IMG/VR virus record: IMGVR_UViG_2897842695_000001 | Location: 1-64,000 of that record | Source: a virus | Taxonomy: Duplodnaviria > Caudoviricetes | Strand: one strand, 5' to 3' | Length of the DNA stretch: 64,000 bases | Shown: one piece after another, positions 10,542 to 59,415 of the stretch | Position numbering within the stretch: position 1 is the stretch's first letter | Layout: each line of letters begins with the position of its first letter | Translations under genes and position numbers: made by a program | Notes under the pieces: model-generated | The model's database searches: none | The model's input: the letters and a program-made list of their open reading frames with translations, nothing else | Told to the model about the DNA's origin: nothing

Positions 10542-10824
10542 ATTCCTGTTCTCTTTGTTCTTGTAAACAAAAAGGCCACCCCCTTTCGAGAATGGCCTTT
10601 GGTCTTAAAATTGGGAGCTAGTGTCTCAATGTGTTTGTAACTTGATAGGTTGTACCCCGCGTCCTTGCGAGTAACCGATAGAACACCTGCTCTTTGCTCT
10701 ATCAGTATGGCCGTGATTCTAGGCTCATTCCGAACAACTATCAAGTAAATTAAGTTTTAATTAACTCCACATCGTTACTTTGTGACGACAATAACACGTA
10801 AACGATTATTGACATTTCAACGCC

Positions 10825-12569: not shown

Positions 12570-12575
12570 TACAGC

Positions 12576-12606
12576 ATTATAAACTCATTCCGAACAACTT
12601 TTGCAA
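12576..12606 (-). promoter_or_regulatory. Promoter TTGCAA-N19-TATAAT with operator CATTCCGAACAA (12586-12597) in the spacer
   Basis: Read directly; spacer is longer than consensus. Confidence 0.5.
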
Positions 12607-12617
12607 TTAACACATAA

Positions 12618-12646
12618 AAAAATACCGCCGTAAAAGGCGGTATTTT
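12618..12646. terminator. Rho-independent terminator
   Basis: AAATACCGCC-GTAAAA-GGCGGTATTT with A/T tails. Confidence 0.65.
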
Positions 12647-12670
12647 ATGAAGATATGAAGTGACGATGTA

Positions 12671-13378: not shown

Positions 13379-13401
13379 AATTTTTTCTACCCTGCGAGCC
13401 T

Positions 13402-14142: not shown

Positions 14143-14710
14143 CTATACCAAGTGCAAGGGCCATTGTGGCCGAAAGGTTAGGCCGGACCATTTCGCCGGT
14201 TTTAATTGGCTTTGGTTTTGGTTCAACCACTTTCAACTTGTTAGGCTTTGACTCGCTTCTGGCTTGCAGCTGGCGTGAACGCTTCATGCTGTCCAGTGCA
14301 TCTTCTATCGAGCCGTCACAGCGTCTTATGTGGTTGTACAACGTGCTCAATGATACGTTGAGCGATTTAGCTATGGCCGGTGCGCCTTTAATGCCATTCC
14401 ATACGTACTTATGCTCACCATTCTTTGAACGATAGTCCTTGTTCTGCACGGCTTCTTCTATCGAGTAACCAGCGGCCAAACGACACTTAACCGTCTCCAT
14501 ACTCACGCCGTTTTTCTTAGCCTTGATTGAGACTTCTTTTGGTAACTTGTTCTTACATGACATAGAGAGGCCAAGCTTGTAGCCTCGGTTAGAAACTTGT
14601 CGGTAAGTGCGGCCAAGGCGCTTTGCAATTTCCTTAGCCGTAATTTTTCCGGCCAGCTGTTTTATTACTTCATCTTCACTTGGAGTAAACGGAACTGAAC
14701 CCTTACACAC
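14126..14710 (-). CDS. Multi-HTH DNA-binding protein
   Basis: FTPSED...EIAKRLGRT and AIAKSLNVSLSTLY HTH-like motifs. Confidence 0.65.
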   Translation of the reverse strand: MCKGSVPFTPSEDEVIKQLAGKITAKEIAKRLGRTYRQVSNRGYKLGLSMSCKNKLPKEVSIKAKKNGVSMETVKCRLAAGYSIEEAVQNKDYRSKNGEHKYVWNGIKGAPAIAKSLNVSLSTLYNHIRRCDGSIEDALDSMKRSRQLQARSESKPNKLKVVEPKPKPIKTGEMVRPNLSATMALALGIGGCNG

Positions 14711-14721
14711 GATGCTATCCC

Positions 14722-42800: not shown

Positions 42801-45253
42801 TCGTCCAAGTCCTTGCTATCTAGCCAATCAGATAGGGCCGTATCAACGATCTTGTACGCTAGTTTTTCATCGCCAGCGCCAGTGCCGAAAAGCGGCGCTA
42901 ACTCGAATGCGCTTACTTGGTCAGCTGGTAGCTGTTTATCGTAACCAATCGCACCATGACGAATAGAGTTACCCGCATCAGGGAATTTCTCTTTAGCCTG
43001 TTCCGTATCCAAGAATTGAACTACTTGGTGATCTGCTGGAGTCGTGCCGATGCCATAAGGGCGAGCGCGTAGGCCGTACCAAAATAGGTTAGCCGTGCCA
43101 TCGTCGTTAGTGTCTGGTTGCTCGCCTTGGTCCTGTTCTTCGGTGGCCGCGTCTCTCTCTGCTTTCTCTTTTTCGTAGTCAGCAAGGATTACCGCTTTCA
43201 CCTCATCCCAAGTTGTTAGGCCATCGCCGCCGTCAACCGGTGAACCCTCACTGTATGCAACATTCAACGTTGCATCTTCTTTCGCGTAGACCATGTATTC
43301 ACCGAACACGGTATCTGCATCGCGGTCTGGCGCGTAGAAGTAAACACGCGGCTCGTTATCTTCGCCTTTATCAATGGTCCAGTTCGCTGCAATATTCTTG
43401 CGACCGATAACGTCTAGTAAGATCTGTTTCAGTTGACGGTTTACGTCGTCCTCACTTAGCTCTGGATAGTCGTTTTCGATATTGCTTGCTAGCGTTGATT
43501 TTGTGTCGTCTACACTAAGTTCGCTTAGTTCCATTTGCTCCGCGTCTAGTGTGGCGATTGCATCATTGATGTAATCATTCGCGTAGCCAGTAACTAGCTT
43601 TTTAACATCGCTTACACCAGCGGCTCTGATCGCTGCGCCGTGCTGTTCAACTAGGTCATTAACAACGCCGTCGAAGTCTCCACCAAACGCGTTTAGCTCA
43701 ACCATAGTGCGTTTAGCATTGGCGTTCATTGAAGCCCAAGACTTAGGCACTGGTTCGTTGGCCGTGCCAAGTTTCCAAACGCCATTACGTGACGTTACCG
43801 CTGGTTTGTTGGCTACGTTGTTGTATGCCTTAATCAGCGCTAGAGCATCGTTAACGGCTTGTTGGTTGCCTTGCTTCGCTAGTGTCTCGATACGGCCCGT
43901 TAAGCTCTTAACGAATAGTGAGCGGTCGTAACCTCCCGAACCATTAATATCAATGTCAGCGATAGTGCTAAGGCTTGAGAAAATGCTACGGCCCACTGAA
44001 CCAATAGCTAGAACCTTGTTACCAGCTGCTTTTACTTCTGGATCGCTGAATAGACGGCCTAGCTCATCGTTGCCTTGCGTCTCATCAACACCGGCTTGCT
44101 CTGCTTCTTTAGCGGCCTTTTCTTCCGCATCCTGATTATATTCATTGATGCGTTGGTCCATCGCGTAGTAGATGGCACTCAAAGTCATAGGCTTTGGATT
44201 GGTAGGCTTTTTACGCGGTTGCATGATGGCGCGGTTAACCATGAACAACATCACTTTGTTGTCGTGCTTAACTTCGACGCTGTATTCGTTCTCTAGATCG
44301 TGGTTGTAGTTATCACCGTTAACAGTCAGTGTGTAACCATTGCCTAGATCGAGTTTGTCGCCACGTTTTAACTCGTAATTAGGATCGAGCGTTCTGGTCA
44401 TTGGCGGGTATGTTTCACCCGTTGCTTGTTCTGTTCCAGATTCCGCGCCACCAGCTTCACCAGTGCCGGTTTGCTTAACGCCGAGCTGCTTGCGTAGTTC
44501 TTCTTGAATATCGTTATGGTTATCGATCTGACTTTGAATGCGGCTTTGCTTTTTCTTGGTCGTTTCGATTTGTTCCTCTAGCGAGTCAACCTGATCATTT
44601 AACTGCGCTGTTTCTTCTTCAAGCTGTTGGGCCTTGTCTTGAGTTTCAGCAAGTTCTTTAGCGTCTGCGTCTTTCTTGGATTGAGCCGCTTGGAACTTCT
44701 CACTGTTGTTCTCTAAAAGAGTACCTAGCTTTGTGGTCACTTCTTTTAAAGAAAGGTCCATATTGCCTTTAGGCGCAACAACGTGAGTAACATCGCGAGA
44801 GTTCATCATGAAACGGAAAGCGATCAGCGTATCGTCAGCATTGATTTTTAGCGGATCGTTGTCTGGAGCATGAAAAGCGATAGAAACACTCTGGCCGTCA
44901 GATAGTGGAATTTTCGCGACTTGCACGGCTACCGCGCCAGACTTGCGAGGTTTGCCGATTTCAATTTCACCACAAGTTAGGTTTGGTGTTTGGCGTTCTA
45001 GTTGGTTGCCGAACTTTTTAACACGTTGAGCCAGCATTGACGCTTTCGATTTGAACGCCTCCAGCATCATCTGAGCTACTGGCTCGCACTGAAAAAGCAA
45101 TGTGTTTTCCAAGTCCTCAAGCGTTACCGACTCAAGCAAAAGCTCGCCGTTTTCCGCTTGGTATAGAGCCTCAATTTGCTCTGGTGTTAGAGTTTTCGCC
45201 AAGTGGTCGATTCGGTCCACCACTTTGATTTGTTCTGTGCTGGTAAACATCAT
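39836..45253 (-). CDS. darA: Giant DarA-like polyvalent antirestriction/internal head protein, 1805 aa
   Basis: DarA-type N-domain (LSDGQSVSI...SRDVTHVVAP), coiled coil, DarA_C-like YGLRARPYGIG...RHGAIGY, LPD29-like YNYNNSDSMTDYFDVNFY; follows hdf. Confidence 0.78.
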   Translation of the reverse strand: MMFTSTEQIKVVDRIDHLAKTLTPEQIEALYQAENGELLLESVTLEDLENTLLFQCEPVAQMMLEAFKSKASMLAQRVKKFGNQLERQTPNLTCGEIEIGKPRKSGAVAVQVAKIPLSDGQSVSIAFHAPDNDPLKINADDTLIAFRFMMNSRDVTHVVAPKGNMDLSLKEVTTKLGTLLENNSEKFQAAQSKKDADAKELAETQDKAQQLEEETAQLNDQVDSLEEQIETTKKKQSRIQSQIDNHNDIQEELRKQLGVKQTGTGEAGGAESGTEQATGETYPPMTRTLDPNYELKRGDKLDLGNGYTLTVNGDNYNHDLENEYSVEVKHDNKVMLFMVNRAIMQPRKKPTNPKPMTLSAIYYAMDQRINEYNQDAEEKAAKEAEQAGVDETQGNDELGRLFSDPEVKAAGNKVLAIGSVGRSIFSSLSTIADIDINGSGGYDRSLFVKSLTGRIETLAKQGNQQAVNDALALIKAYNNVANKPAVTSRNGVWKLGTANEPVPKSWASMNANAKRTMVELNAFGGDFDGVVNDLVEQHGAAIRAAGVSDVKKLVTGYANDYINDAIATLDAEQMELSELSVDDTKSTLASNIENDYPELSEDDVNRQLKQILLDVIGRKNIAANWTIDKGEDNEPRVYFYAPDRDADTVFGEYMVYAKEDATLNVAYSEGSPVDGGDGLTTWDEVKAVILADYEKEKAERDAATEEQDQGEQPDTNDDGTANLFWYGLRARPYGIGTTPADHQVVQFLDTEQAKEKFPDAGNSIRHGAIGYDKQLPADQVSAFELAPLFGTGAGDEKLAYKIVDTALSDWLDSKDLDELTQDQLNTLKMGNFKSVFGNVLREQVEYQERKINPTAYKNWNASIDLVTPELIQKVAEDEYHLAEEQGPDANEQQQKTQARMKFIDSATDRLKNIETLPPKERKRAVMLASRSLGGITKSPKRGEGVAGQAARIASQMRIVEELQGETYASLDAQFKNRQQIVAFLKAKNIPYRKLNATRESLLKSILAYRDNFFASLNNMFEMAHTRKDVYDKFENGEAISIEDVEKGFGGTSVYRLGDYQLAKIKGEAVVPAMDEQGEDYRTVERYINDIADGEYPNFKDVSDEDLFAQYFRYAGVTMTDILSTEGSRYLRNDPNLTEQEATAIQNGSMPTWYVAAVEAEAQMRGLPDLHNLTNYSHKGELARASEKRYDYAVSIGKQDGVVIDLFTGRIVERNLDGKEAVTKANELNSEHQKAIVTDLFKMLKDGETLEELADRKVSRSYPPVNQSMFTTVNGLECIYNSLAAEKGTIHGGLQLKDNALEHIAIVKAGGEFDFDSMTEDQNAKLDELGITTQTVITPKGEKLTAVSIKNSRVLLTKAGGEELAKLLGTISAAKADDVDEATKDKTEEEKQLLALDSSEFNSGSIYDAENIGDVKTIASRVRSFLTQMKKAGRLPKDVVISVKKDSYNSLALRLVGLPENVMLWNPEYLQFEIDNPNSTNSRGISFYTEEVNKLIEFVNAYVDQYNYNNSDSMTDYFDVNFYGGRLEVDFDFKRERKVIELESLTETHQQGDQVESKSLDMDYINNTMNDGERAQLEELERFTGFKMALGKQEVTFPAGKVKQVNITDEDDALDKLESLYETLTSQLNEKSALEIKPLENWQSLHAYASPEVNKLTFITSGSIKTNHSNDVANAYGDKYLIARHGSKAVYVYPVIENGQYSLAAYFGGEQVGTFESANELEMLCIHALDLTQELPAPENTEEMEHVEKLKTIRDYKGEVTLELLEQYQDDLEKAYEHFEANGTYPENEPLMEAAFANYAELQSKI

Positions 45254-46828: not shown

Positions 46829-47863
46829 CTAAACGTTGTCTAAGAGGATTTTGTAACAGGCCAGTTTTGGATAGTGCGGTGCAGCTGGTGGATAGATACC
46901 AAATTTGTCACCGGTATAACCACCGCCACGCGTCATGAGGCTAACTTGCTCTAACTCACCGATCGCGTGAATGGCCGTCACGTAGTCACGTAGTACCTGT
47001 TTCATGGTATCAGTGAATAGCAGCTCGTTAATGTGCTTGTAATCGCTCAAGTTACCGTAGACCGCGTAATCACCTTTACGGGCGTTAAGTGCGTTGCGAA
47101 TCGTACCGTCATAGTCGATCACATAATCATTCACCAGCTGGTTATTAAGGAAGTCACCAGAATTGAGACTACCCATTTTGCCTTTTTTCAGCGCTTTAGC
47201 ATCGTTATACACAAAGTAGCTGGTTTTCACTTTATCCAAGCTCTCGATGTACTTGAAAAGCTCAACGGTAGAATGGCCGAATTGCTTCATCATTTCCGTG
47301 TTCGCGTAAATGTCGAACTGCGTTGAGAATCGTTTGATCCCTGCCGCTTCCAACTCTTTGTAAACGTCCACCAGCGTATGATGATTTGATTCACTCACCA
47401 CCATTTGAACAACATGAATATGCTTTGCGTAGCGCTTCATAAGTTCATGGCCCTTTAGCGAACCTTTCTTACCATTACCAAGGCCATCGTAGCTTAGTAT
47501 CAGCTTGCAATTGTATTCCTCCAATAGCTCGATCCACTCATCATCAAGTAGCAAGCCATTGGTAGTAATGCGCCAAGTATAAGGAATGTAGTATTTCTCT
47601 GAGCGAGCTTTGATGATCTCAAATACTTCGCGGAAATACTCTTTACCGTTCATCAATGGCTCACCACCAAGGAATGAGAAGAACCACTTATTGAACCCTA
47701 GCGACTTGTCACACATTTCAGCGTAGCGCTCTGGAGGCATCATAGTTGCGATTGGTAGATCGCCTTTTTTCATACGCTCCATTTCGCTATCTGTCATGCA
47801 GTAATCACAATCAAGAAAGCACGCGTTATTAACCTTTGGAAGAAACGATATGCGATCGAACAT
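46829..47863 (-). CDS. Radical SAM enzyme (anSME/SPASM-clan core, auxiliary-cluster Cys absent)
   Basis: CFLDCDYC (CxxxCxxC), LGGEPLM, ITTNGLLL, LSYDG. Confidence 0.9.
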   Translation of the reverse strand: MFDRISFLPKVNNACFLDCDYCMTDSEMERMKKGDLPIATMMPPERYAEMCDKSLGFNKWFFSFLGGEPLMNGKEYFREVFEIIKARSEKYYIPYTWRITTNGLLLDDEWIELLEEYNCKLILSYDGLGNGKKGSLKGHELMKRYAKHIHVVQMVVSESNHHTLVDVYKELEAAGIKRFSTQFDIYANTEMMKQFGHSTVELFKYIESLDKVKTSYFVYNDAKALKKGKMGSLNSGDFLNNQLVNDYVIDYDGTIRNALNARKGDYAVYGNLSDYKHINELLFTDTMKQVLRDYVTAIHAIGELEQVSLMTRGGGYTGDKFGIYPPAAPHYPKLACYKILLDNV

Positions 47864-47866: not shown

Positions 47867-48619
47867 TTAGTATCCCTTAATGCCGTAAGTTTCCATCATG
47901 GCTACCATATCGGACGAACGGTCCACTTTAGCCGATGGGCGAGGTAATCCCTTTGCAACGCCAGTCTTGCCTAACCAGTCCAGCGAACAGAAGAAACGCA
48001 CGTTGTTGTCTAGGTCGAAGCCGTAGTGCGTATAAGCGCGATAAACGGCGTTGTAACGCTCTCCAAAGTGCTTGAACGCTTGAGGCTGACTAAAGCCTAA
48101 CTCGATACGGCGTTTTTCCATCACTTGTTGGAGCGTGGCCGTTTGGACCTCGCTTGAGTCAATATTCACCTTACCTAGTGAAAAATCACCGTTAGCGATA
48201 AACAGCATATTGATGAGGTCATAGCGATCATAAAGCTGGTCGTAAAACTCACGCTGGGCCTTACCAAAGCGATAAGGCGTGCAGTTATCAAAGCGGTAGG
48301 TACGAATACCGGTAGCACGTAACACATTGCCGTTATAGACAGACTCTAAGAACGTTAGGTAGCCGCCAACATTGCCGTCAGCATCGAGACAAATGTAATC
48401 AATCGGGCGTACCTCTGGCTCGTATTCCGGATAGTAGAAAGGCTGGCCGATTAGTTCGGAAATATTGTCAGCACGACTAGGCGCAAACAGTAAATTTGGG
48501 AAGTCGTCAGCCAGTGATAGCAATTGCCGGTTCGCCGGTTTTTTACGCCATTCATCGATCTTCGCGCATACCTCATCGAGATAAGGCGAATCACTTGTTA
48601 AGCGAATCAAGTAGCTCAC
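47867..48619 (-). CDS. Hypothetical enzyme-like protein (weak GNAT-like resemblance)
   Basis: 250 aa; YICLDADGNVGGYLTF strand pattern; fold not established. Confidence 0.55.
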   Translation of the reverse strand: MSYLIRLTSDSPYLDEVCAKIDEWRKKPANRQLLSLADDFPNLLFAPSRADNISELIGQPFYYPEYEPEVRPIDYICLDADGNVGGYLTFLESVYNGNVLRATGIRTYRFDNCTPYRFGKAQREFYDQLYDRYDLINMLFIANGDFSLGKVNIDSSEVQTATLQQVMEKRRIELGFSQPQAFKHFGERYNAVYRAYTHYGFDLDNNVRFFCSLDWLGKTGVAKGLPRPSAKVDRSSDMVAMMETYGIKGY

Positions 48620-49247
48620 ATAAACCCCCTACATTTTTGTGATAGCGAGACATAAAGCAGTGACGTTTTGCGTTTGCTTCAATGGCGGCCACGAACTCAT
48701 CATCTAAGTAATCGCGTGCATCACCGATCGCTTCTAGATATTGTTCCCAACCAAAGGCCAGCATGCGGCCAGACTCGCGTTGTTGTTCCCACGGCTTGTA
48801 TAAGCGGGTATTGATCACGGTCGCTTCACTCATTCGGCCAAACGTCTGAGTAATACCGCCTAGATCGTTAAAGTCAGGAATCGAGAAGTTAAAGCGCAAA
48901 TCTTCACCTTGCACTTCGGTTCGGTCCGACTTCGTGTAAATCACAAGATCTTGTTTCGTGCCTTTCTGTTGGCTCATGAAACATGAACCTTTGAATGACT
49001 CGGTTTTATCAAACACCGGCTGAATTGAACCACGGAAAAACAGCGTAGGAGCAAGGCTGCACAAACGCTCTGAGTCTGCTTCAATATCGGCGTAATACTC
49101 ATGCTTCACTAGGCGCGGGATCTCTTTGATTTCAAGATCTGTTAATACGTGAAGCTCATTTTCTGGATGATGCTTTAGAAAGCTCACCGCCATAATGTAG
49201 AACTGGTTAAGCCAGTCCTTATTCAACAATCTTACGTAGACTTTCAC
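48591..49247 (-). CDS. Putative glycosyltransferase (GT-A/GT8-like N-terminus)
   Basis: NKDWLNQFYIMAVSFLKHHPENELHVLTD resembles GT8 N-termini; no clear DxD motif. Confidence 0.45.
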   Translation of the reverse strand: MKVYVRLLNKDWLNQFYIMAVSFLKHHPENELHVLTDLEIKEIPRLVKHEYYADIEADSERLCSLAPTLFFRGSIQPVFDKTESFKGSCFMSQQKGTKQDLVIYTKSDRTEVQGEDLRFNFSIPDFNDLGGITQTFGRMSEATVINTRLYKPWEQQRESGRMLAFGWEQYLEAIGDARDYLDDEFVAAIEANAKRHCFMSRYHKNVGGLCELLDSLNK

Positions 49248-50082
49248 CGGTCACATTCTCCACTGCTTCAACGTATTTCATGATGTTTTTGTCAATGTCC
49301 TCTTTAGAGAAGAACAGGCCGGACAGGTCCGAGCTAAACATGCGGTTAAGCGCTTGCTGTGGTGGCAATACGCCGCCATCAAGCAACAAATCAACGTAGC
49401 TTGCATAACATGATTGGTAGTCGCTCCAGTCTTTGTGATTGGTAATGTCTACCACTGACACACCATTAGCGATCGCAATAAAGTTCAGCTCGCTGGTGTT
49501 CGGGATGTAAGCCTTTTTCAGTGATGGAATTAGCGAGCCACCAGCGACACGGGCCGCAAATACATGGTTTGGATATTCCGCTTCAAGTTCGGCCATGTGG
49601 CGCTCATGTGTGACTGGATGAGGCTTGACCATGCCGCCCTCTTGAAATACGCATTCATTCACTTTCAAGAAGTCGATAGCAATACGCATACAGTTAGAAC
49701 CGGCCAAGAACGCTACTACTTCCGGATGTTTCATTGAGCGGCGTAGCTTGTATTTGTCTGGAGTGACAGATGAGCGGATCTGTTCGCAGTAATCAATCAG
49801 GTTTGCTGGCTTGTGCTGCATTGCTGCGCGTAGAACGGTCATGTGAGTGTCGTAGTGCATGTAGCGAATCGACACGCCACCAAGCGCACCACAAAACTCA
49901 TGGATCGCGAATGAACCCTCGCCGTTGTTGTGGCAAATATCGAAGTCAACGTTATAGCCCATACCACGTAACTTGATTAAGGCATACTCGGCCAGCTGTC
50001 GGCTGGTGTTACCTTGGCTAGTTGGTAGGACCGTACCAGTACGTGCAAACGCTGAACGGTTATCAACAATCTCTGATTTCAT
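49219..50082 (-). CDS. Putative GT-B glycosyltransferase (KpsC/KpsS or sialyltransferase-like C-domain)
   Basis: VKPHP motif and NTSELNFIAIANGVSV, like the KxHP...nS..g.eA...G..V pattern. Confidence 0.5.
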   Translation of the reverse strand: MKSEIVDNRSAFARTGTVLPTSQGNTSRQLAEYALIKLRGMGYNVDFDICHNNGEGSFAIHEFCGALGGVSIRYMHYDTHMTVLRAAMQHKPANLIDYCEQIRSSVTPDKYKLRRSMKHPEVVAFLAGSNCMRIAIDFLKVNECVFQEGGMVKPHPVTHERHMAELEAEYPNHVFAARVAGGSLIPSLKKAYIPNTSELNFIAIANGVSVVDITNHKDWSDYQSCYASYVDLLLDGGVLPPQQALNRMFSSDLSGLFFSKEDIDKNIMKYVEAVENVTGESLRKIVE

Positions 50083-50084: not shown

Positions 50085-50411
50085 TTACGCCTCGACTGGA
50101 GCAACACGGTTTAGATGGCCGTCAACACGCATCTTGATAGAGTCGATAATTGATGTTTTGACTTGCTCTAGCGCCTGTTCGTATTCAGCGACGATGGCAT
50201 CTTTATCGTTATCTAACTGAGCGATGTGCTCAACGATTACTTCTGCGTTTTGTTTTGCGTGCTCAATGGTCGCCTCAACGATCGTTTTTAGCTCTGCATT
50301 AGAAGCAAGAACGGATTTCACCGCCTCATTGGCGTTATTCGCGATGGTCGTTACTTCTTTAAGTTTTTCTTCAAGCTCGCGAACGCGTAAGTCTAATTGT
50401 GTTTCACTCAT
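50085..50411 (-). CDS. Acidic coiled-coil protein, 108 aa
   Basis: Heptad pattern; AGGA SD. Confidence 0.7.
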   Translation of the reverse strand: MSETQLDLRVRELEEKLKEVTTIANNANEAVKSVLASNAELKTIVEATIEHAKQNAEVIVEHIAQLDNDKDAIVAEYEQALEQVKTSIIDSIKMRVDGHLNRVAPVEA

Positions 50412-50432: not shown

Positions 50433-50460
50433 AAAAAAGGCCGTTCGGAATGAACAGCCT
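50433..50460 (-). terminator. Internal terminator/attenuator between repeat-protein genes and enzyme genes
   Basis: AGGCTGTTC-ATTCC-GAACGGCCT-TTTTT on the minus strand; contains operator core CATTCCGAAC. Confidence 0.6.
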
Positions 50461-50496: not shown

Positions 50497-50652
50497 CTAC
50501 GAGCGAGCTGATTGAGTAACCCACGATGTAGTTTTCGCCGTCATGTAGCTAGTCGTTTTCGCCGTTACATGGCCGTCAGAACCAAAACCCATTGTTGTAC
50601 GCGAGGTCATTGTTACTGTAGTTCGGCTTGTAGTGTGTACTTGGTTTTGCAT
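50497..50652 (-). CDS. Unannotated 51-aa Thr-rich repeat peptide
   Basis: Hand translation MQNQVHTTSRTTVTMTSRTTMGFGSDGHVTAKTTSYMTAKTTSWVTQSARS; TAAGGA SD; same tetrapeptide grammar as the upstream gene. Confidence 0.75.
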   Translation of the reverse strand: MQNQVHTTSRTTVTMTSRTTMGFGSDGHVTAKTTSYMTAKTTSWVTQSARS

Positions 50653-50669: not shown

Positions 50670-51809
50670 TTATACGACAACAAGTGTCGTTTTACTGGTT
50701 GTGTAAGTTGTCGTGAAGCTGGTACTAATCGTTGTCGATTTGCTGAAATTCTTCTTAGTCGTTTTCGAAGTTGTGACCGTAGTATTTCGTGAACCAACCC
50801 AAGACGTTGTTTTATCTGTTGCCTTAGACGTTGCAGCTGAATAGCTCCAAGTTGTTGTCCAAGTCGTTGTCTTGCCAGCTGTGGTCCAGCTAGTTGATAC
50901 GCCGCCAGTGCTCCAGCTAGTCGTCTTAGTGGTGCTTTGTGAAGCTTTCCAAGAAGTTGTGTAGCTAGTGCCAACCGCTGTACCAAACGAGGTTGATTTC
51001 GTTGTGGCCTTGCTGGTTGATTTACTGTTTGGCACGTTCGTAGACCAAGTTGTTGTCTTAGCCGTAGTTTTGGAAGTACCAAAGCTGGTGTTAACCGCTG
51101 CCGTCCAAGCCGTTGTATAGCTTGTAGTACGAGAAGTGGTGTAACCCTTACTCGCGTATGGACCGGTCGCCCAAGTCGTCGTCTTGGTGGTCGTTTTGGA
51201 GTACGAATAAGTTGTGCTTCGTGTGGTGTTCCAAGAAGTTGTCTTGTTCGTGCTCTTAGACGTGTTACGAGGCGAGGTCCAACTTGTAGTCCAAGTCGTT
51301 GTGCCAGCTGTAGAACGGCTGGTTGATTTCGTCGTAGATTTCGTCGTGGTCTTGCTGGCCGTCCAAGTCGTAGTAACCGCTGTACCTTTTGACGTTGTAC
51401 GCGTGGTTGTTTTCGACGTAGTACCGCTGGTTAATTGGCTGGTGCTCTTTGACGCGGTTTTAGTGGTGTTCCAGCTTGTCGTTCCCGCCGTTGTCTTACT
51501 GCATGTTACAGACGTTGCAAAAGTCGATACCCAAGACGTACTAGCATCACCGACCCAAGAGGTAGTGATACTGGTTGTTTTTGAGGTTGTTTTGCTGGTG
51601 GACCAATACGTTGTTTTCAGACTCAAACGACACGCGCCGTAGAAGTCCGACAACTTGATTGCACCCGTTGTAGGTACTTTGGCATTCTCCGGAATATCCG
51701 GAATGATACCGCCACCACGATAGAGCTGAGACAAAGCAAGTGCGCCCGTCTGGCCGTAGTAGTCGCGGATCTGCAATAGCGACAATGCGCCGCTACTTGG
51801 TAATGGCAT
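50670..51809 (-). CDS. Thr/Ser/Lys/Trp tetrapeptide-repeat protein with phage fibre-tip-type N-terminal domain
   Basis: MPLPSSGALSL...LSQLYRGG...PTTGAIKLSDFYGA leader (~60 aa), then ~320 aa of T-[S/T]-X-[T/S] repeats. Confidence 0.85.
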   Translation of the reverse strand: MPLPSSGALSLLQIRDYYGQTGALALSQLYRGGGIIPDIPENAKVPTTGAIKLSDFYGACRLSLKTTYWSTSKTTSKTTSITTSWVGDASTSWVSTFATSVTCSKTTAGTTSWNTTKTASKSTSQLTSGTTSKTTTRTTSKGTAVTTTWTASKTTTKSTTKSTSRSTAGTTTWTTSWTSPRNTSKSTNKTTSWNTTRSTTYSYSKTTTKTTTWATGPYASKGYTTSRTTSYTTAWTAAVNTSFGTSKTTAKTTTWSTNVPNSKSTSKATTKSTSFGTAVGTSYTTSWKASQSTTKTTSWSTGGVSTSWTTAGKTTTWTTTWSYSAATSKATDKTTSWVGSRNTTVTTSKTTKKNFSKSTTISTSFTTTYTTSKTTLVVV

Positions 51810-51811: not shown

Positions 51812-52381
51812 CTACCCCCTAAGCGTGCTGATAGCCGCTTGAACCATATCGAAAACCGCATAAGGCCGATGAACAATAGCGCTCTCGCCTATACGGTTAG
51901 CCACAAATAGGATCGCTCCAGCCTCAAAGCCTAGTTCTTGGCCTAGCCGCAATAGCTGGGAGGTTTCCATATCTTCTACAGGGAAGCCGTCAACCGGCTT
52001 GCTCTTGGTGTAAAGCAAATCTGTTGTGACACACCCTGTTAACGGTAAGTTGGGAAATAGAAAGGACGGGTAAGTGTGTGAATCTTCACGGCTGCATGCA
52101 CGGGACACGGCCACCAGCGAACCAAGCAATGATTCATCTTGTGTTCCTGCCGTACCGATGCGAATAGCTCGCTCAACTGGATAAATCCCTTTGAGTTGTC
52201 GCACGGCATAGTCAATTGATGGTCGGCCCATTCCACAAGCACAAACGCCAATGTCGGAAGCAAACCAGACGCTAAAAAACGGCTGGTAAATATCCGGCTC
52301 ACTTGGCGCGTTCGCATCAATGATTTTAGCGATCGCTTGCGCCCTATTAGGGCAACCAGTGAAGATCCACAACTTAACCAT
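51812..52381 (-). CDS. Nucleoside phosphorylase-I fold enzyme (DeoD/Udp-like)
   Basis: TGCPNRA, GMGRPS, IRIGTAG, TDLLY and EDMET correspond to PGDPxRA, GMGxPS, IRxG, DxFY and EME motifs. Confidence 0.8.
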   Translation of the reverse strand: MVKLWIFTGCPNRAQAIAKIIDANAPSEPDIYQPFFSVWFASDIGVCACGMGRPSIDYAVRQLKGIYPVERAIRIGTAGTQDESLLGSLVAVSRACSREDSHTYPSFLFPNLPLTGCVTTDLLYTKSKPVDGFPVEDMETSQLLRLGQELGFEAGAILFVANRIGESAIVHRPYAVFDMVQAAISTLRG

Positions 52382-54159
52382 TAAGCACGGGCCTGTAGCA
52401 GTTCTTTTACGGCTGCCTCAACAAAGCTCAATCGGTCCTCAAGACGGCTAATTGTGTTCTGTTGCTGCTTAATACCCTCGATGAGTAGAGCAACCATATT
52501 GCCGTATGCGACTGATAGCTTGCCGTCTGGTCCTGCTTTCACCACATTAGGTAGCACTGCCGCGACTTCCTGCGCGATTACGCCCGTATGCCAACTATCA
52601 TCTTGCTTTAGCTGGTAGTCGTAACCGTTCAGCTGCATGATCTTGTTGATTGCGTCCGTTAGTGGCTGGAAGTTCTTTTTGATTCGCTTATCAGATAGAC
52701 CTTGCAAGTCACCAGACAGCGTTAAGTTGCCGGTTTCAAAGTCAAAGACAAAGCGATCCGCTGAACCCTTGCGCATGTTTAGCTTGAAGCCAGACAAAGC
52801 ATCGAGAAAAGCAGACGTACCATTGAAGTACAAACCTAGATCGTTGTCGTTACCAAGCAACAATTTCACGTTGTCGTTTAGTGCCGTGCTGCCAGTGAAT
52901 CGACCACCAGCTTTAGGCATCTTGGTATCAGCTACGGCTACAGCATCTTTGACCGCTTTAGGCGTGGCCGCTTTTTCTTCGCTGGTCGAGTCAATCGCAC
53001 TTGATAGCTGAACAACACCGGCGCGTTGAAGCGTAGCCGCCAAAACAGAAAGCGTTAGTGCGCTGCCAAGCTGGCCGCCACCAGTCAATGCGCCGCTGGT
53101 ATTGATGAGCGCGGTTTTCTCCAGTTTCTTAGCCAGTTCGCCGGTGATTGAATCTAGAATGCTTTCATTGGCCTCAAGCTCTTTGATTAGAGCCTCTAGG
53201 TTTTTCAGCATTTCCGGATCAGTACCGCCTAAAAGCGTCTGAATGGAGTTATCCGTGTACTTGGCCGCGTCCACACCTACTTGTAGGGCAAATGCTTTCA
53301 ACGCTTTTAGCGCTGCTGCTGCTGCCGCCAATTCGGTACTGTCAGAGTCCAATTCACTTGTTAGGCGAACACCACCTAGCTTAGTGGTCGTTGCTTGGGC
53401 CAAACCAAGCATCAAACCGTCAGCCAATGCACCGCCACCAGTCAAACCCTCGGACACGCCGACTTGAATTTTACCTAGTGATTCGCGAGCGCCTAGCTCA
53501 ATACCACGCCATAACTGAGGCAATAGAACCGGCTTAGGGGATTTACTTTTGTTATCAATATCTGCGTCTGTAGCTGCCGAATCGACACGCATATATTGTT
53601 TATGTGGATCATGAGCCGCAATGTGTCGCGCTAGGTCCAAACCACCATCCATGCGCTGATTAAAGCTCATGTATGATTCATCTAGGACTAGCGTTCCAGC
53701 TGGCACGTCAAAGGAAGCAAGAATTACATGGTGCGCTTGCAGCTTGCCCTCTTGAACGATCTTCAATGAAGCCGCATCGTAAGCTGATCGAATATCAATT
53801 TGCTTCGTGATAAGGCCGTGTTGGTAGATCGCCTCGATAACTGCATAGCTACGGCCAATTGGCACGGTCAACACAACATCATGCTGTTGGCGAACTGTCA
53901 GCAAGTAGCCGTCACGTTCAACCATTGCAACGCCGTATTGTTGGCCGGACGTAACGTTAACGGTCATGGTGTTACCAATCACCGCCACATTAAAGCCACG
54001 GTACACACCAGCTTCTACAATGCCGCAAAGCTTACGGTTCAAACTTTCCGAGCTGTTTGGCTCTAGGTATTGCGTATCTGCAATAAGAGGCAAACTCTCG
54101 ATCTCGTTAATGGTAGGCGGTATTAAAACCGCCTCCTCATGTCGTCGTTGCCCACTCAT
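52381..54159 (-). CDS. Tail fibre protein (P1 S-type N-terminus, fibre repeats, C-terminal S74 intramolecular chaperone)
   Basis: QYLEP..SESLNRKL N-domain, GVVQLSS...AATPKAVK repeat, SDKRIK...GVIAQEV...VAYG. Confidence 0.88.
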   Translation of the reverse strand: MSGQRRHEEAVLIPPTINEIESLPLIADTQYLEPNSSESLNRKLCGIVEAGVYRGFNVAVIGNTMTVNVTSGQQYGVAMVERDGYLLTVRQQHDVVLTVPIGRSYAVIEAIYQHGLITKQIDIRSAYDAASLKIVQEGKLQAHHVILASFDVPAGTLVLDESYMSFNQRMDGGLDLARHIAAHDPHKQYMRVDSAATDADIDNKSKSPKPVLLPQLWRGIELGARESLGKIQVGVSEGLTGGGALADGLMLGLAQATTTKLGGVRLTSELDSDSTELAAAAAALKALKAFALQVGVDAAKYTDNSIQTLLGGTDPEMLKNLEALIKELEANESILDSITGELAKKLEKTALINTSGALTGGGQLGSALTLSVLAATLQRAGVVQLSSAIDSTSEEKAATPKAVKDAVAVADTKMPKAGGRFTGSTALNDNVKLLLGNDNDLGLYFNGTSAFLDALSGFKLNMRKGSADRFVFDFETGNLTLSGDLQGLSDKRIKKNFQPLTDAINKIMQLNGYDYQLKQDDSWHTGVIAQEVAAVLPNVVKAGPDGKLSVAYGNMVALLIEGIKQQQNTISRLEDRLSFVEAAVKELLQARA

Positions 54160-54700: not shown

Positions 54701-55996
54701 TTAGACGTAACGATCTAAACGTACTGAATCGACGGGCGATTCATCCAAACGAACACTTGTGACACCAGCTGGTTTGCGTAGGCCGACCTCTTTAGGCTCA
54801 AAACGGGCCTGTATTTCGATCGAGTTATCTGCGCTTTCAATTGCGTCAGATACACGCATTTTAGTGGCTACTTGTGCGTAACTATTTTCTATTTGTGGGC
54901 GTTTTTCAGATAGGACAACACGCCAAAGCTTCTCGTAGATAAAGAAGTTTTTATCGAGCCTCACCGTGTCGGAAGAAACACAATCGAGGCGCGTTCTGGC
55001 TTGTTTTTGGGGAATAGGTTGAGGTTCATCTACAGTAGTAAATTTACCAGCTTCTACCGCCAGCGTATATTTACTTTGTTCCTCTTTTTCGGCCAAATTG
55101 ACCGTTTGACGGGTTTTATTAAACCCATTTTCTGAGGATTCTAGCGCATTTGTTAGGAATGTGCGCCATACCTTTTCATAGACAAAGAAATTTTTATCGA
55201 CGCGGAATGTGTCGCTCGCGTAAGCATCTAGACGTGTTCGGGCCTGTCGCGTTGGGATTGCTCTTGGCTTGTCCTCATCAAACCAATCTAGCGTGATTTT
55301 CTGGATGAACTTAGGCACATCATCGAGATCTTCAATACGGATCGTAGTGTCAACTTGTGAGATACCCTGCACTACCCATTCAATCACATCCCAAAGCTCG
55401 AATTTCAGATAGTAGCTAGTACCCTGCATAACGATACGCAAAGGCACTAGCGGGTAAACAACGCGGCGGAGCTTTTCTTCAAACTCACGCAAAGATTCTT
55501 CGTCGTTAACGCGAACCTCGTTGAGTGGCACTTGGATCACGCCTCGGCTGGTCATGAACCAGTCTTTGTTTTCCTGCATATCCAAATCGTCAGCTGTCAC
55601 CAGTACAGTGCCATAAGGATATTTAACTAGGTCCGTAGGCGCGTATAACGGCTGCCAAGTCACCTCCATACCCGCAAACTCACGGCGTAACGTTGCCTCT
55701 AGTGGGTAAACGGTTTTCTTTAGGTGGATCTGGTCTTGGCGCTGCATAACTGTCATTGGTAGGTCAGTTTCAGCCACATCACCGAACGCGAAAAAGTCGC
55801 CTAGTTCCCTAACCTCAACTTGCAGATCTTGAGGCTGCATATCAAAGAGAGAGTTACGGGTTTTAATCCGCTCTAGGTAGTTCTCGACGTGTGATTCCAA
55901 AAGCGAGCCAAGGGCATGAGCAAAGTCAGTCCATGCCTCGGTATTTTGCTTGGTTCGGGTAAGCTGGCTTTTCAGCCAGCTTTGCAAGTTACTCAT
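54701..55996 (-). CDS. Baseplate protein (P1 gp16-like) with triplicated C-terminal motif
   Basis: SWLKSQLT, WQPLYAP and FMTSRG motifs; three RLD..S/VD..R.D units. Confidence 0.7.
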   Translation of the reverse strand: MSNLQSWLKSQLTRTKQNTEAWTDFAHALGSLLESHVENYLERIKTRNSLFDMQPQDLQVEVRELGDFFAFGDVAETDLPMTVMQRQDQIHLKKTVYPLEATLRREFAGMEVTWQPLYAPTDLVKYPYGTVLVTADDLDMQENKDWFMTSRGVIQVPLNEVRVNDEESLREFEEKLRRVVYPLVPLRIVMQGTSYYLKFELWDVIEWVVQGISQVDTTIRIEDLDDVPKFIQKITLDWFDEDKPRAIPTRQARTRLDAYASDTFRVDKNFFVYEKVWRTFLTNALESSENGFNKTRQTVNLAEKEEQSKYTLAVEAGKFTTVDEPQPIPQKQARTRLDCVSSDTVRLDKNFFIYEKLWRVVLSEKRPQIENSYAQVATKMRVSDAIESADNSIEIQARFEPKEVGLRKPAGVTSVRLDESPVDSVRLDRYV

Positions 55997-58900
55997 AGGC
56001 GGTCCTCTAATTTGCTTAGGCGTTCAGCCAACTGCTCGATAAGTTGAGCCTGTTGGTCAATGATCACTTGCTGTTCTTGAATCGCTTTGATTGAGCATGC
56101 GTTCAAACCAAAGTGAGAAACAGATAAGTAACCGTCCTCGCCCTCGCTAACCAGTGTTGGGATCTGCTCTTGTAGCTCTTGAGCAATAACGCCGATTTCC
56201 TCAACGCCATGTTTCACATAGCTGTAAATGCCAAGCTTCAATAGCTTGTCTAATACGCCCTCTGGTAGCTGCTCGATGTTCGATTTTAAGCGGCGGTCCG
56301 AAGTACCTTTAAAGTCACCAGCGATAAATACACCGGTAGACGTACCCGCATCAATTTGCGAGAAGTTGTGACGGTGGCTCGCCGGTGCGTATGGGTGCGA
56401 GTGGTTCGCTTTGTCATAAGCGGTTTTCACTGCTTTTGCAGACGCGGCCAGTGTTTCACTGGTTGAGTTAACCGCGTTGGTTAGCTGGACAGTACCGGTC
56501 TGTGTTGTGCTCGCTGCTCGATGTACCCATTTACTTGCTGCCAAGTCATAAGCGATCTTTACTGCTTTTGGCGTGGCCGCTAGTGCTTCACTTGTCGAGT
56601 TCGTTGCGCTTGATAGCTGGACCGCACCGGCGGCGGTTAGGTCTGCCACTCGATAGGTCCACTTGCCGTTTGCTACGCCTAGTGCTGAAACAGCTTTGTC
56701 GTAAGCGGTTTTTGCTGCCTTGGAACTTGCATAAACCGTAGAGCTTGCCGAGTTAACCACGTCCGAAATATTGCGGTTGTTTGGACTAAATACTCGCTGG
56801 CCCTTTTCGCGCAATTCAATCAGGAAGTCGAAAACACCAGTCGTCGCGACCGCGATCTGTTTAAGGCTAACTTCTGTTCCCGCTTTCACGTTATCTGCAA
56901 GTGCGATCGTCAGTGTGGCCGTTACTGAGTCAGTGCTACCGTCAATACGGTAAGACGAACCAGCAACTTGAGGAATGCCGCCTTTATGGTTCATTACAAC
57001 GCTTGCTTGGCCGTGGCCGTCATTGTCGGTTAGCGTTGCTTTTGCGCTGCGCATTAGGTATCGACCGTCACCAGTGGCTTGAGTCATTTTGCTTGCTGCT
57101 AAGTCGTATGCAGACTTAACCGCTTTAGGCGTAGCCGCGTATGCTTCGCTAGTAGAGTTGATCGCACTGGACAACTGAACCGCACCAGTTTGGGCCGTTG
57201 TTGCTACTCGATACGTCCACTTACCCGCCGCCAAGTCATAAGCGAGTTTCACTGCTTTAGGCGTGGCCGCTTGTGCTTCGCTGGTGGAGTTAATCGCGCT
57301 TGATAATTGGACCGCACCGGCTTTCGCTGTTGTCGCTACCGTATAGGCCCACTTGCTTGCTGCTAGGTCATAGGCGGTTTTTACTGCTTTAGGCGTGGCC
57401 GCTAGAACTTCACTGGTTGAGTTAACCGCACTGGATAGTTGGACCGCACCTTTTTGAGCTGTTGATGCGTCATTGATACCTAGTTGAACATTACCGGTAA
57501 GATCGCCGCCGCCAGTTAGTGCACCGCTGACAACAATCTGGATCGCCTTGTTTGCTTTCTTGGCGAGTTCTGCGTTAATGGCCGCAATGTCGCTGTCATT
57601 ATCCACCAGCGCATCACCAAGCTCTTTAAGCGTGTTTAGGTGTTCAGCTGGAGCGTCACCAAGTAACTGAGAAATGAGCTGGTCAGTGTAGGCTTTGGCT
57701 GCTTGTTCTGCCGAAACTGCACGATCATGCGCTGTCTTAGTTGCTTTGGCCGTTGAGCCTAGCGTTTCGCTTGTTGAGGTAACGGAACTAGAAAGCTGTA
57801 CCGCACCTTTTTGAGCTGTCGTCGCGTCCTTGATACCGATCGTTAGTTCATCACCAATCTGACCGCCACCGGTGATCGCTCCGGTAGTATTTAGCAAGGT
57901 TGCATTGTTGGCTTTTGTCGGTAGCGTTTTGTTGATTTGCGCGATATCACCGTCATTGCTGACTACCGCATCACTAACTTCTTTGAGGCTAGCATGCGCA
58001 CCGGCTTCGCCTTTTAGCTTGGCTATTTCTTGGTTTGTGTAATTGGTCGCGTTGGTGTTAGCGGTACTAATGGCCTGTTCTTTGGCTGTCTTGACACCTT
58101 TAGGCGTTGCGGCTTGAGTTTCGCTGGTGGATGTAGTCGAGCTAGATAGTTGCGATACACCTTTGCTTGATGTGGAAGCATCAGGCACGGACGCTTCAAG
58201 CACATAAGGCGATTGCTCCGAGCCGTCACCAGCTGCGGCCCACTTCAATGAAATGTTTGGGTTTGAAGCAAAGCGAACGAACTTACCTTGTTCCACTTCG
58301 TGACGGGCGTTGTCCTCATCCATTAGCGTAAAGCTGCGGATATAACGATCGTCGTGTAGGTGCGTTGTTGGTGATTTGCTATCGAGCGCGTCTTGTAGGC
58401 CGTCGATGTAACCGATCGTGTGACGGTGTGAGTCTTTCTTGACCGTTACGTTTAAGGTCACGTCTTGCGAGCCATCGAGACTAACCGAACCGGTCACGTT
58501 ACCCGCTAGTGCAAGGTTAAAAGCCGTTTCAATCTTCTTGGCCGCAACTGCTGTAGCGCCTTTATCTAGACACGTATCAATGACGTGGTTTACCGCTCTT
58601 TGAACCGCTGCGGTAGTCGCTGCTAGTTCGTCTGAGGCGGTCGCATAATTACCGGATAGAGTAACAACACCTTGGCGCTCAAGAGTCGCTAACTGAATGC
58701 CTAAAGTAATACCATTTAGTGCGTTACCGGTGGCCTGTAATGGTGCAGACGTGGTGATTGTTACGGCCTTTAGTGCGTTGTCTAACGCGGTCCATAACTT
58801 AGGTAACTCTAGGTACTTCTCTAGGTTTGATTTGTTGTTGATTTCTTCTGTTGTGGCCGCTTCTTCGCGTAACAGATATTGTTTGTGTGGATCTGGAGTG

Positions 58901-59415
58901 TTGACGTGCTGCGCAATATCGGCGCCGCCATAGTCACGCTCGATGTAGCTAATATCAGCTGGCGTAACATCCGGTGCACCATCAACCAATGTCACTCGAC
59001 AAAGGATCGTATGATGGCTTTGCGTTTGGCCTACAGCTACGAACTTGATGCTGGCCGCGTCAATGGATGAGGTGTTATCTACTTGCTTGGTAGGTACGCC
59101 AAATTGATAGAACGCCTCTAGGACCACATAGCCATCGCGGATCTCTGCCATATCCACAAGAACATCATCTTGCTGGCGAACCGTTAGCACGTAGTCGTCG
59201 CGTTCTACCAGTGCAACACCGGTAATGTCTTTAGAAGTAACTAAGATATGTTTTCCGGCTACAGCTTCACATTCAAAGCCACGAAAAACACCTTTATGAA
59301 CCATGCCGCTAAACTTGCGGTTAAGGCTTTTTGATGTGAATGCCTCTAGGTACTGAATGTCAGTAACTAGCGGTAATTCGTCAATGACGACAACGTTATT
59401 CGATACCTTTTCCAT
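55993..59415 (-). CDS. Second, long tail fibre (S-type N-terminus, many fibre repeats, S74 chaperone)
   Basis: 1140 aa; repeated GAVQLSSA..STSE..AATPKAVK; SDRRLK...GVIAQEL. Confidence 0.9.
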   Translation of the reverse strand: MEKVSNNVVVIDELPLVTDIQYLEAFTSKSLNRKFSGMVHKGVFRGFECEAVAGKHILVTSKDITGVALVERDDYVLTVRQQDDVLVDMAEIRDGYVVLEAFYQFGVPTKQVDNTSSIDAASIKFVAVGQTQSHHTILCRVTLVDGAPDVTPADISYIERDYGGADIAQHVNTPDPHKQYLLREEAATTEEINNKSNLEKYLELPKLWTALDNALKAVTITTSAPLQATGNALNGITLGIQLATLERQGVVTLSGNYATASDELAATTAAVQRAVNHVIDTCLDKGATAVAAKKIETAFNLALAGNVTGSVSLDGSQDVTLNVTVKKDSHRHTIGYIDGLQDALDSKSPTTHLHDDRYIRSFTLMDEDNARHEVEQGKFVRFASNPNISLKWAAAGDGSEQSPYVLEASVPDASTSSKGVSQLSSSTTSTSETQAATPKGVKTAKEQAISTANTNATNYTNQEIAKLKGEAGAHASLKEVSDAVVSNDGDIAQINKTLPTKANNATLLNTTGAITGGGQIGDELTIGIKDATTAQKGAVQLSSSVTSTSETLGSTAKATKTAHDRAVSAEQAAKAYTDQLISQLLGDAPAEHLNTLKELGDALVDNDSDIAAINAELAKKANKAIQIVVSGALTGGGDLTGNVQLGINDASTAQKGAVQLSSAVNSTSEVLAATPKAVKTAYDLAASKWAYTVATTAKAGAVQLSSAINSTSEAQAATPKAVKLAYDLAAGKWTYRVATTAQTGAVQLSSAINSTSEAYAATPKAVKSAYDLAASKMTQATGDGRYLMRSAKATLTDNDGHGQASVVMNHKGGIPQVAGSSYRIDGSTDSVTATLTIALADNVKAGTEVSLKQIAVATTGVFDFLIELREKGQRVFSPNNRNISDVVNSASSTVYASSKAAKTAYDKAVSALGVANGKWTYRVADLTAAGAVQLSSATNSTSEALAATPKAVKIAYDLAASKWVHRAASTTQTGTVQLTNAVNSTSETLAASAKAVKTAYDKANHSHPYAPASHRHNFSQIDAGTSTGVFIAGDFKGTSDRRLKSNIEQLPEGVLDKLLKLGIYSYVKHGVEEIGVIAQELQEQIPTLVSEGEDGYLSVSHFGLNACSIKAIQEQQVIIDQQAQLIEQLAERLSKLEDRL

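Follow-up and report, generated by a model that had tools for sequence, protein, structure and literature searches.

The window analysed here, a 64,000-nucleotide (nt) stretch of phage DNA (positions 1 to 64,000 of IMG/VR record IMGVR_UViG_2897842695_000001), comes from what we consider to be a marine Vibrio-type phage. On its minus strand, beside the tail-fibre genes, lies a Thr-rich gene (50670-51809), a 379-amino-acid (aa) open reading frame (ORF) whose product has two parts: (i) an N-terminal adaptor domain of ~60-66 aa (residues 1-66; 51612..51809) and (ii) a Thr/Ser-rich region (residues 67-379 plus the stop codon; 50670..51611) composed of units of the form T-[S/T]-X-[T/S]. That the gene is read from the minus strand follows from the hundreds of homologues known for its N-terminal domain; the plus-strand frame of the same interval contains many stop codons. 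Behind this gene, on the same strand, are those for a 108-aa coiled-coil protein (50085..50411) and, three ORFs downstream of the Thr-rich gene, a 287-aa transferase-like protein (49219..50082). The window therefore contains a trio, i.e., Thr-rich protein, small coiled coil of the E-H-I-x-x-L-D type and 287-aa gene, for which no published description was found in literature searches.

Within the 313-aa repeat region, Thr (118 residues) and Ser (60) together account for 57% of the sequence, followed by Lys (30), Ala (20), Trp (17) and Gly (14), whereas Asp occurs just twice and Glu not at all; the Trp, Asp and Glu counts agree with those given in an earlier note on this DNA that was made from its sequence alone. 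With a transferase-like gene adjoining, the region shows one trait of mucin-like or serine-rich-repeat glycoproteins (at least 50% Ser+Thr over a long stretch, dedicated transferase gene adjoining). It is cationic (pI of the protein, 10.4) and Trp-rich, and its C-terminal end reads L-V-V-V. The near-strict 4-residue T-[S/T]-X-[T/S] period over ~320 aa described in the note is confirmed: autocorrelation of a Ser/Thr indicator is 0.38, 0.34, 0.35 and 0.37 at lags of 4, 8, 12 and 16, respectively, and negative at lags 1-3, and the top peak of a fast Fourier transform lies at a period of 4.06, its power (1471) exceeding that of all 1000 shuffles (mean 432, maximum 1161). Consecutive Lys, Arg, Trp, Tyr or Phe residues are spaced by 4 or 8 in 49 of 66 cases, versus 9.5 (maximum 21) in 2000 shuffles. 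Across a 67-unit profile, Thr occupies the first position in 49 units, Ser (36) or Thr (18) the second in 54, and Thr (29) or Ser (17) the fourth in 46; the third is held by 30 Lys, 17 Trp, 8 Tyr, 6 Arg and 5 Phe.

The repeat has a further regularity, beyond what had been described in the note. Since the register changes in steps of 2 only, 28 of 30 Lys, 16 of 17 Trp, and every Arg (6/6) and Phe (5/5) fall on even indices of the repeat and 56 of 60 Ser on odd ones, a two-residue parity that runs unbroken across the 313 residues (0 flips in 145 sliding windows). Thr codons are used almost evenly (ACG 34, ACA 32, ACT 28, ACC 24), and Tandem Repeats Finder detected no tandem array in the repeat-coding DNA, only three 2-copy micro-repeats; the pattern is thus kept at the protein level and does not reflect recent DNA duplication, as the note had judged from the diversified codons. 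The repeat pattern is real and under constraint. This bears on the notion that the region is a low-complexity spacer, i.e., an entropic linker retained for its length only and devoid of specific chemistry. Such a linker would sit well with repeat lengths that range from about 110 to 313 aa among vibriophage relatives and with the lack of a confident fold, AlphaFold2 modelling of the full protein from a single sequence having been uninformative (predicted local distance difference test [pLDDT] 35, predicted template modelling score 0.21), with long strands in parts of the repeat. However, periodicity and parity maintained against diversified codons, a third position restricted to Lys, Arg, Trp, Tyr and Phe, and the conservation of dedicated partner genes all argue otherwise, and we regard a mere spacer as very improbable.

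The partner genes follow the Thr-rich sequence across phage lineages. Searching viral contigs for the 287-aa family yielded 79 loci, 59 of which have at least 1.5 kilobases (kb) of upstream sequence. In 51 of these 59 informative loci, the 287-aa homologue is preceded on its own strand by a Thr/Ser-rich ORF (Ser+Thr of 60% or more, over 50 aa) whose end lies <700 nt upstream, against a background of 64 in 2582 ORFs; the remaining 8 encode proteins of 40-58% Ser/Thr together with a small coiled coil. The lengths of the Thr-rich partners span 196 to 1483 aa and their N-termini are of at least five kinds, so the enzyme follows the Thr-rich part and not the adaptor. Within the adaptor family itself, the enzyme accompanies 7/7 Thr-rich members and 0/72 others (Fisher 3e-10, over lineages that are not independent). 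The proposal in the note that the hydroxyls suit O-glycosylation thereby gains indirect support, as a family resembling β-Kdo transferases tracks Thr/Ser-rich proteins across many phage lineages.

In vibriophage KVP40, the 197-aa KVP40.0254 displays the same two-part architecture and is followed by a 72-aa coiled coil and by homologues of both the 287-aa protein and a 218-aa protein of the window; window-type architecture with the coiled coil and both homologues is also found in V05, VS1, F86, K575 and D479. Since the KVP40 module lies ~30 kb from the two S74 fibres of that phage, the Thr-rich part and the enzymes move as a set, independently of the fibre. Period 4 is common to KVP40, L107 and L133; large marine proteins have periods near 6 and 16 instead, and marine relatives sharing the enzyme keep neither period 4 nor parity, which points to Ser/Thr richness, and not one fold, as the common denominator. 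Scans for close relatives detected none of the whole Thr-rich protein in the viral contigs and none of P0155 in the genome contigs, and a megablast search of 15 kb against phages returned nothing.

The marine comparison also weighs on the possibility that the repeat is an unmodified, self-assembling β structure (a two-faced ribbon, cross-β stack or trimeric β-helix) forming a thin fibre or spike, with one face of pure Ser/Thr and the other alternating Thr with Lys/Trp, and with the transferase-like enzyme directed at another target, such as host lipopolysaccharide or capsule. Parity without slip over 313 residues fits β strands, whose successive side chains point to opposite faces, as do indels and register shifts in steps of 2 only, and long strands do occur in parts of the repeat in the low-confidence AlphaFold2 model. 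That model, however, has the pLDDT of 35 given above, the marine relatives that share the enzyme lack both regularities, and a host glycan as target would leave it unexplained why the enzyme and a Thr-rich ORF almost always occur together. We deem an unmodified β structure unlikely.

Several observations on these Thr-rich loci are worth recording in their own right. Marine contigs (L096, L145, L108, L125 and others; e.g., L145:2157-6548) encode giant Thr-rich proteins of up to 1483 aa, with the N-terminus M-A-I-Y-V-N-D-S-G-T-L-R and a conserved C-terminus, Y-W-D-G-S-Q-W-S-E. Behind these genes are found a 287-aa-family gene, a 315-aa family, a GT29-like sialyltransferase (Pfam E-value [E] 1e-6; in 50 loci) and a DxD-containing 214-aa family, with ribonucleotide reductase genes adjoining. 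Among deposited vibriophage genomes, the Thr-rich genes of D479 (L168; 11917-12432, plus strand), F86 (L171) and K575 (L172) (both from 4001, plus strand) are missing or fragmented in the annotation, small ORFs having been annotated on the opposite strand at the D479 locus instead. Gene callers evidently mishandle low-complexity Thr-rich genes, and the family is under-counted as a result. The F86, K575 and D479 proteins each contain a short Cys-x-Lys-Gly-x-Cys-Gly-like loop in mid-repeat, at which the window protein has a single Cys within the corresponding T-C-S-K-T.

As for the partner enzyme, an AlphaFold2 model of the 287-aa protein, computed from an 8-sequence alignment (pLDDT 84.6), is two-lobed and GT-B-like. 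Its top Foldseek matches are WbbB and KpsC (E 4e-5, probability 1.0, template modelling score [TM] 0.44), and VIA-align gave Z-scores (Z) of 10.3 for WbbB and 9.6 for KpsC (each over ~216/287 residues), 8.6 for KrkA, and 8.2 for a polysialyltransferase, for which a smaller part was covered. The β-Kdo transferase matches (Z 9.2-10.3; 215-217 residues aligned, across both lobes) are moderate. When the model was compared exhaustively with 48,161 chains, whole-protein matches at Z of at least 8 were limited to KpsC and WbbB, with a polysialyltransferase at Z 8.0 over the C-lobe only. The enzymes KpsC/KpsS (GT107), WbbB (GT99) and KrkA are the best, and the sole, whole-protein structural matches to the 287-aa protein; a profile of its family found no meaningful match among PDB sequences.

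Twelve positions are invariant in 19 homologues of ~20% identity (D48, K110, Y111, L126, G128, N130, K153, H155, P156, T158, E198 and G255). Among them, H155-P156, within the invariant K153-x-H155-P156-x-T158, corresponds to the His-Pro motif common to β-Kdo transferases and the transferases that use cytidine monophosphate (CMP)-sialic acid. The invariant D48 is located in the N-terminal lobe and can be set beside the acidic general base of KpsC, Glu66, by lobe only. In β-Kdo transferases, the His of the His-Pro motif protonates the CMP phosphate, and an invariant QXXXD motif with an Asp nucleophile defines the retaining enzymes (PMC10148158). Because the QXXXD motif is absent, we have not filed the 287-aa enzyme under GT99 or GT107. 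From the modelled fold and the His-Pro motif, we assign it to a GT-B-like family of its own, new and marked by the HP motif, with a CMP-activated ulosonic acid as its probable donor. With no CMP-sugar synthetase (PF02348) in the phage record, the sugar donor would be host-derived. Compared to the β-Kdo transferases, the 287-aa protein is shorter and without a sequence-level match, and its presumed acceptor is a protein, not a glycolipid or O-antigen.

The 108-aa coiled-coil protein carries the conserved motif [VIL]-[ED]-H-[IV]-[AST]-x-[LF]-[DE] and is homologous to KVP40.0255 and its D479 counterpart; its gene always lies between those for the Thr-rich and transferase-like proteins, and the same small ORF is present in VS1, F86, K575 and marine loci. 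In the metagenomic protein P0157 (376 aa), the coiled coil is naturally fused to the N-terminus of the 287-aa transferase-like protein.

The adaptor domain is constructed from two P-[ST]-[ST]-G-x-I-x-L...[FY]-G half-repeats flanking a central Y-R-G-G-G-x-x-P motif. A phmmer search with residues 1-69 against 1.84 billion cluster representatives matched 1545 proteins at E of at most 1e-3 (90 at E of at most 1e-10), nearly all at residues 1-60, and the family alignment has invariant Y30, R31, P37, P46 and G49. No Pfam family covers the domain, which PHROG 30374 matches at E 9.8e-33; judged by its sequence, the Thr-rich protein is a member of this large, unnamed phage adaptor-domain family. The domain is nearly always N-terminal, in proteins of 150-350 aa, the rest of which are mutually unrelated; some have a PKD/Ig-like remainder, and about 5 of the 144 top matches screened (at least 100 aa) are Thr/Ser-rich. 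In P0030, P0048, P0054, P0113 and P0140, the domain is instead C-terminal, behind an unrelated globular part, and these proteins end a few residues past D-F-Y-G, indicating that it works at either terminus. In Xanthomonas phage RTH11 (L003), two tandem adaptor genes (9001-9471 and 10020-10502) with near-identical Ig/PKD-like C-terminal parts lie right behind a 2203-aa S74 fibre, the annotated start of the first gene being 36 nt too far downstream. One further match, the 3085-aa P0126, was discarded owing to its repetitive, junk-like sequence.

The note had held that leaders of this type occur on proteins encoded just after S74-chaperoned fibres, and the synteny agrees. The genes compared came from 80 viral loci and from reference phages, and upstream sequence was available for 74 of them. 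For 44 of these 74, no more than 60 nt separate the start from the stop codon of a fibre gene with an S74 chaperone; for another 15, such a fibre gene is found inside 2 kb. The window belongs to the latter class, in the order 592-aa S74 fibre, 189-aa protein and Thr-rich gene, with overlapping or 2-nt junctions; the fibre gene ends at 52381 and the Thr-rich gene starts at 51809, with that single 189-aa gene between them. The 592-aa tail fibre (52381..54159, minus) has a C-terminal S74 intramolecular chaperone (Pfam Peptidase_S74, E 2.7e-18; Phage_fiber_2, E 1.1e-19), and from its sequence, cleavage is expected before S-D-K-R-I-K at residue 489; it is the nearest candidate docking partner for the adaptor domain. 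A second S74-chaperoned tail fibre, of 1140 aa, is encoded in the same operon (55993..59415, minus); the window phage and KVP40 each possess two S74 fibres. The wedged 189-aa protein (51812..52381, minus) belongs to the purine nucleoside phosphorylase (PNP)/UDP-phosphorylase superfamily (Pfam PF01048, E 4.8e-10; partial NCBIfam DeoD/Udp matches), matches the N-terminal half of that fold only, and has no homologue in the related loci.

An analogy to gp38-type adhesins, also drawn in the note, has gene position and a low-confidence structural lead in its favour. As in the T-even phages, the gene is located just behind a distal fibre gene and encodes a small N-terminal module before a variable distal part, and structural neighbours of residues 1-66 in the ESM Atlas include gp38 clusters (TM by query 0.79-0.80), a low-confidence lead given an Atlas model pLDDT of 0.30. 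At the sequence level the analogy fails: Gp38_N (PF21721) and GP38 (PF05268) profiles had 0 matches among 35 adaptor-family members at E of at most 0.01 and none at the Thr-rich gene at E of at most 10 in a search of the whole phage record, and the adaptor-family profile found no meaningful match among PDB sequences. Moreover, T-even fibres mature via gp38/gp57A, whereas those here do so via the S74 chaperone.

Gene position bears in turn on whether the protein belongs to the virion at all. Conceivably, it could act inside the infected cell, for instance as a sink or scaffold that, jointly with the enzyme, draws off CMP-Kdo or some other nucleotide sugar and in this way disturbs envelope synthesis in the host, or superinfection. 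The KVP40-type module does reside among metabolic genes (NAD salvage, QueC-like, NAPRT-like and radical S-adenosylmethionine [SAM] genes), far from structural ones; in the schizo-T4 vibriophages (KVP40 11212-13758; D479 8995-15695), a block of QueC-like and NAPRT-like genes, with one or two more for radical SAM enzymes, is retained directly behind the module. In the window, a terminator-like hairpin (50438..50460, minus; a 9-bp stem followed by a T-run) separates the fibre and Thr-rich genes from the enzyme cassette, as such a role might lead one to expect; it is the best site of a scan that found 25 sites versus 17.8 +/- 3.7 expected, by consensus match only. Against a non-virion role, the Thr-rich gene is situated in the tail-fibre module, directly behind fibre genes, both here and in the majority of other lineages; elsewhere in its family, the adaptor is joined to display domains of the Ig/PKD type; and a late-promoter-like core precedes the KVP40 gene. 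More specifically, in KVP40, V05 and VS1 a sequence that agrees with the T4 late promoter core at 7 of 8 positions precedes the start of the Thr-rich gene by 39 nt. Ahead of KVP40.0254 it includes ATAAATA, which 18 kb of sequence contains just twice. The exact T4 late promoter TATAAATA does not occur in front of the vibriophage Thr-rich genes, which have 7-of-8 versions only. Taken together, we judge a non-virion role to be improbable.

The remainder of the cassette lies on the same strand. A putative gene for a 51-aa Thr-rich ORF with TTSR/TTSY/TTSW units (50497..50652, minus) begins 17 nt after the main gene, between it and the enzyme cassette, in a different frame and without an adaptor domain; it has an AAGGA ribosome-binding site, and no homologue of it was found. 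It is perhaps an additional acceptor, perhaps a remnant. Beyond the 287-aa gene comes the 218-aa conserved partner (48591..49247, minus), homologous to KVP40.0257 and D479_0264 and matching PHROG 30897 (of unknown function). The ESM Atlas gives a weak lead from it to GT8/Nucleotid_trans, which remains only a lead since hhalign comparisons of the 218-aa family with three marine-locus accessory families gave probabilities of <3%. A 250-aa protein with no detectable relatives or family (47867..48619, minus) is followed by a 344-aa radical SAM enzyme (46829..47863, minus; Pfam Radical_SAM PF04055, E 3.2e-12) that retains the CX3CX2C cluster at C15, C19 and C22. Downstream of the cassette, a 1805-aa ORF (39836-45253, minus) encodes acidic, coiled-coil-rich segments.

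Formation of cyclophanes on the periodic aromatics by a radical SAM enzyme had been suggested in the note, and it fares poorly. In its developed form, the Thr-rich protein would be a giant substrate akin to ribosomally synthesised and post-translationally modified peptides (RiPPs), with the radical SAM enzyme cross-linking periodic aromatics to neighbouring side chains (as cyclophanes or related structures) and thereby stiffening the chain. The enzyme gene lies four genes downstream of the Thr-rich gene, and its only phage homologue, D479_0271 (33.5% identity), is again ~2 kb from a Thr-rich module with an unannotated Thr-rich gene and the enzyme set, so that some functional link is possible; a scan of viral contigs found no close relatives of the window enzyme. 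Other radical SAM genes occur near KVP40-type and marine modules (the marine ones with SPASM, in ~15/79 loci), and cyclophane-forming maturases are among the best NCBIfam matches. Those matches, however, cover the generic N-terminal radical SAM core only and fall far below family cut-offs. Like the SPASM cyclophane maturases (triceptide type: XyeB, GrrM/OscB, YhhB), the enzyme combines a CX3CX2C core with a nearby repetitive, aromatic candidate precursor, but those maturases act on a leader-core peptide, whereas the candidate substrate here is a 379-aa protein. A Pfam SPASM match is lacking and no cysteine beyond CX3CX2C is kept with D479_0271; as only the three cluster cysteines are conserved, neither the window enzyme nor its homologue has a SPASM/twitch auxiliary cluster. 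In addition, the three radical SAM families are mutually unrelated and each is found in a minority of loci, and the tailoring of nucleotide sugars is another common task of such enzymes, for this one no less likely than the cross-linking of protein. A RiPP-like fate for the protein is therefore, to our minds, decidedly improbable. In D479, genes of the window type and of the KVP40 type of radical SAM enzyme stand side by side.

Our preferred model, to which we would give about an even chance, is that the Thr-rich protein is a fibre-linked acceptor for dense O-glycosylation. Going by gene order only, the adaptor domain would most likely hold the protein on the tail fibre or elsewhere on the virion. 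The 313-aa region would then present a dense array of acceptor hydroxyls to the co-encoded 287-aa GT-B-like enzyme, which would work together with the 108-aa coiled-coil protein. Every second residue of the repeat is a potential Ser/Thr acceptor and every fourth tends to be Lys/Arg or aromatic. Given the likeness of the enzyme to CMP-ulosonic-acid transferases (β-Kdo transferases and sialyltransferases) and its possession of their His-Pro motif, the likely donor would be a host CMP-sugar, such as CMP-Kdo or a CMP-activated nonulosonic acid. Periodic Lys/Arg could neutralise the acidic sugars and Trp/Tyr/Phe could stack on them, to yield an extended, stiff glycoprotein filament. Its role may be to adhere to glycans of the host surface, to provide masking from them, or to protect the fibre.

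Known glycoprotein systems offer partial precedents. Serine-rich repeat glycoproteins of Gram-positive bacteria (GspB, Fap1, SraP) are built on a Ser-x dipeptide, are usually acidic or neutral, are modified by the GT-B enzymes GtfA/B with UDP-N-acetylglucosamine (UDP-GlcNAc), and leave the cell by accessory Sec export. They likewise place Ser/Thr at every second residue, with dedicated glycosyltransferase genes adjoining, and they have a separate non-repeat domain for attachment or binding and a surface fibril as product, the counterpart of which is proposed here; the phage repeat differs in being Thr-dominated, cationic and of period 4, with no signal peptide and with a Kdo-transferase-like partner. 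(An NCBIfam "serine-rich protein" match to the phage protein was set aside as compositional, at 22.6 versus a 650-bit cut-off.) Short-period Thr arrays are also found in antifreeze glycoproteins, (Ala-Ala-Thr)n, which bear a glycan on every repeat, and in the flat Thr face of insect TxT antifreeze β-solenoids. With a period of 3, or of 12-15 per coil, compared to 4 here, and no Lys/Trp column, these are alike in the Thr array only, and no link to ice is claimed for the phage protein. Among phages, mycobacteriophage-encoded glycosyltransferases are thought to modify structural proteins of their own virions (Freeman et al. 2023, Cell Host Microbe 31:1216, PMC10527164, as cited in PMC12801897). 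As that citing account has it, these are conventional glycosyltransferases with C-terminal extensions of capsid and tail-tube proteins as targets; in the phages discussed here, a portable cassette would instead combine a dedicated periodic acceptor, a coiled-coil partner and an HP-motif enzyme.

Several points weigh against glycosylation of a fibre-linked acceptor and temper our confidence in it. (i) The fold matches of the enzyme model are moderate (Z 9-10, TM 0.44). (ii) As to the missing nucleophile motif, there is no invariant Gln/Asp behind strand 122-126, and the position equivalent to QXXXD, judged from sequence and model strand order, holds the invariant G128-x-N130 instead. (iii) Fibre segments preceding the S74 domain were not conserved between the loci compared, and no conserved docking site is visible as a consequence. 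(iv) KVP40-type phages have the Thr-rich gene at the ~30 kb remove from S74 fibres noted above. (v) Unbroken two-residue parity exceeds the needs of a disordered brush and could mean folded β structure. (vi) In print the protein has a single label, "cell wall mannoprotein" in phage phi-pp2, which was assigned automatically from its compositional likeness to yeast Tir proteins, and searches of the literature on Thr-rich phage proteins, phage O-glycosylation and the KVP40 virion proteome yielded no biochemical or proteomic report on the protein.

A more specific version of the acceptor model would take the strict parity and 4-residue register as the code for a regular glyco-filament. Each T-[S/T]-X-[T/S] unit would carry Kdo or a nonulosonic acid, with Lys/Arg balancing its charge and Trp/Tyr stacking against it, and the sugars would be added by HP-motif transferases of a family not recognised before, which lost the Asp nucleophile. 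While we hold this detailed picture to be doubtful as it stands, it would, if true, represent the first protein O-glycosylation by a Kdo-transferase-like enzyme and a new, portable way for many phage lineages to coat their fibres in host-like sugars.

Ultimately, were the Thr-rich protein indeed a glycosylated acceptor, many marine and Vibrio phages, the long-studied model KVP40 among them, would build a dedicated, heavily glycosylated appendage by means of an enzyme family that is as yet unnamed in databases. The enzyme itself would open a new branch among the CMP-sugar transferases, one whose acceptor is protein, and (T-S-K-T)n would provide a simple acceptor tag with a matching enzyme. Glycosylation of protein would then rank as a general trait of tail fibres in phages and would influence host recognition, adhesion to mucus or particles, and resistance to proteases or grazers.

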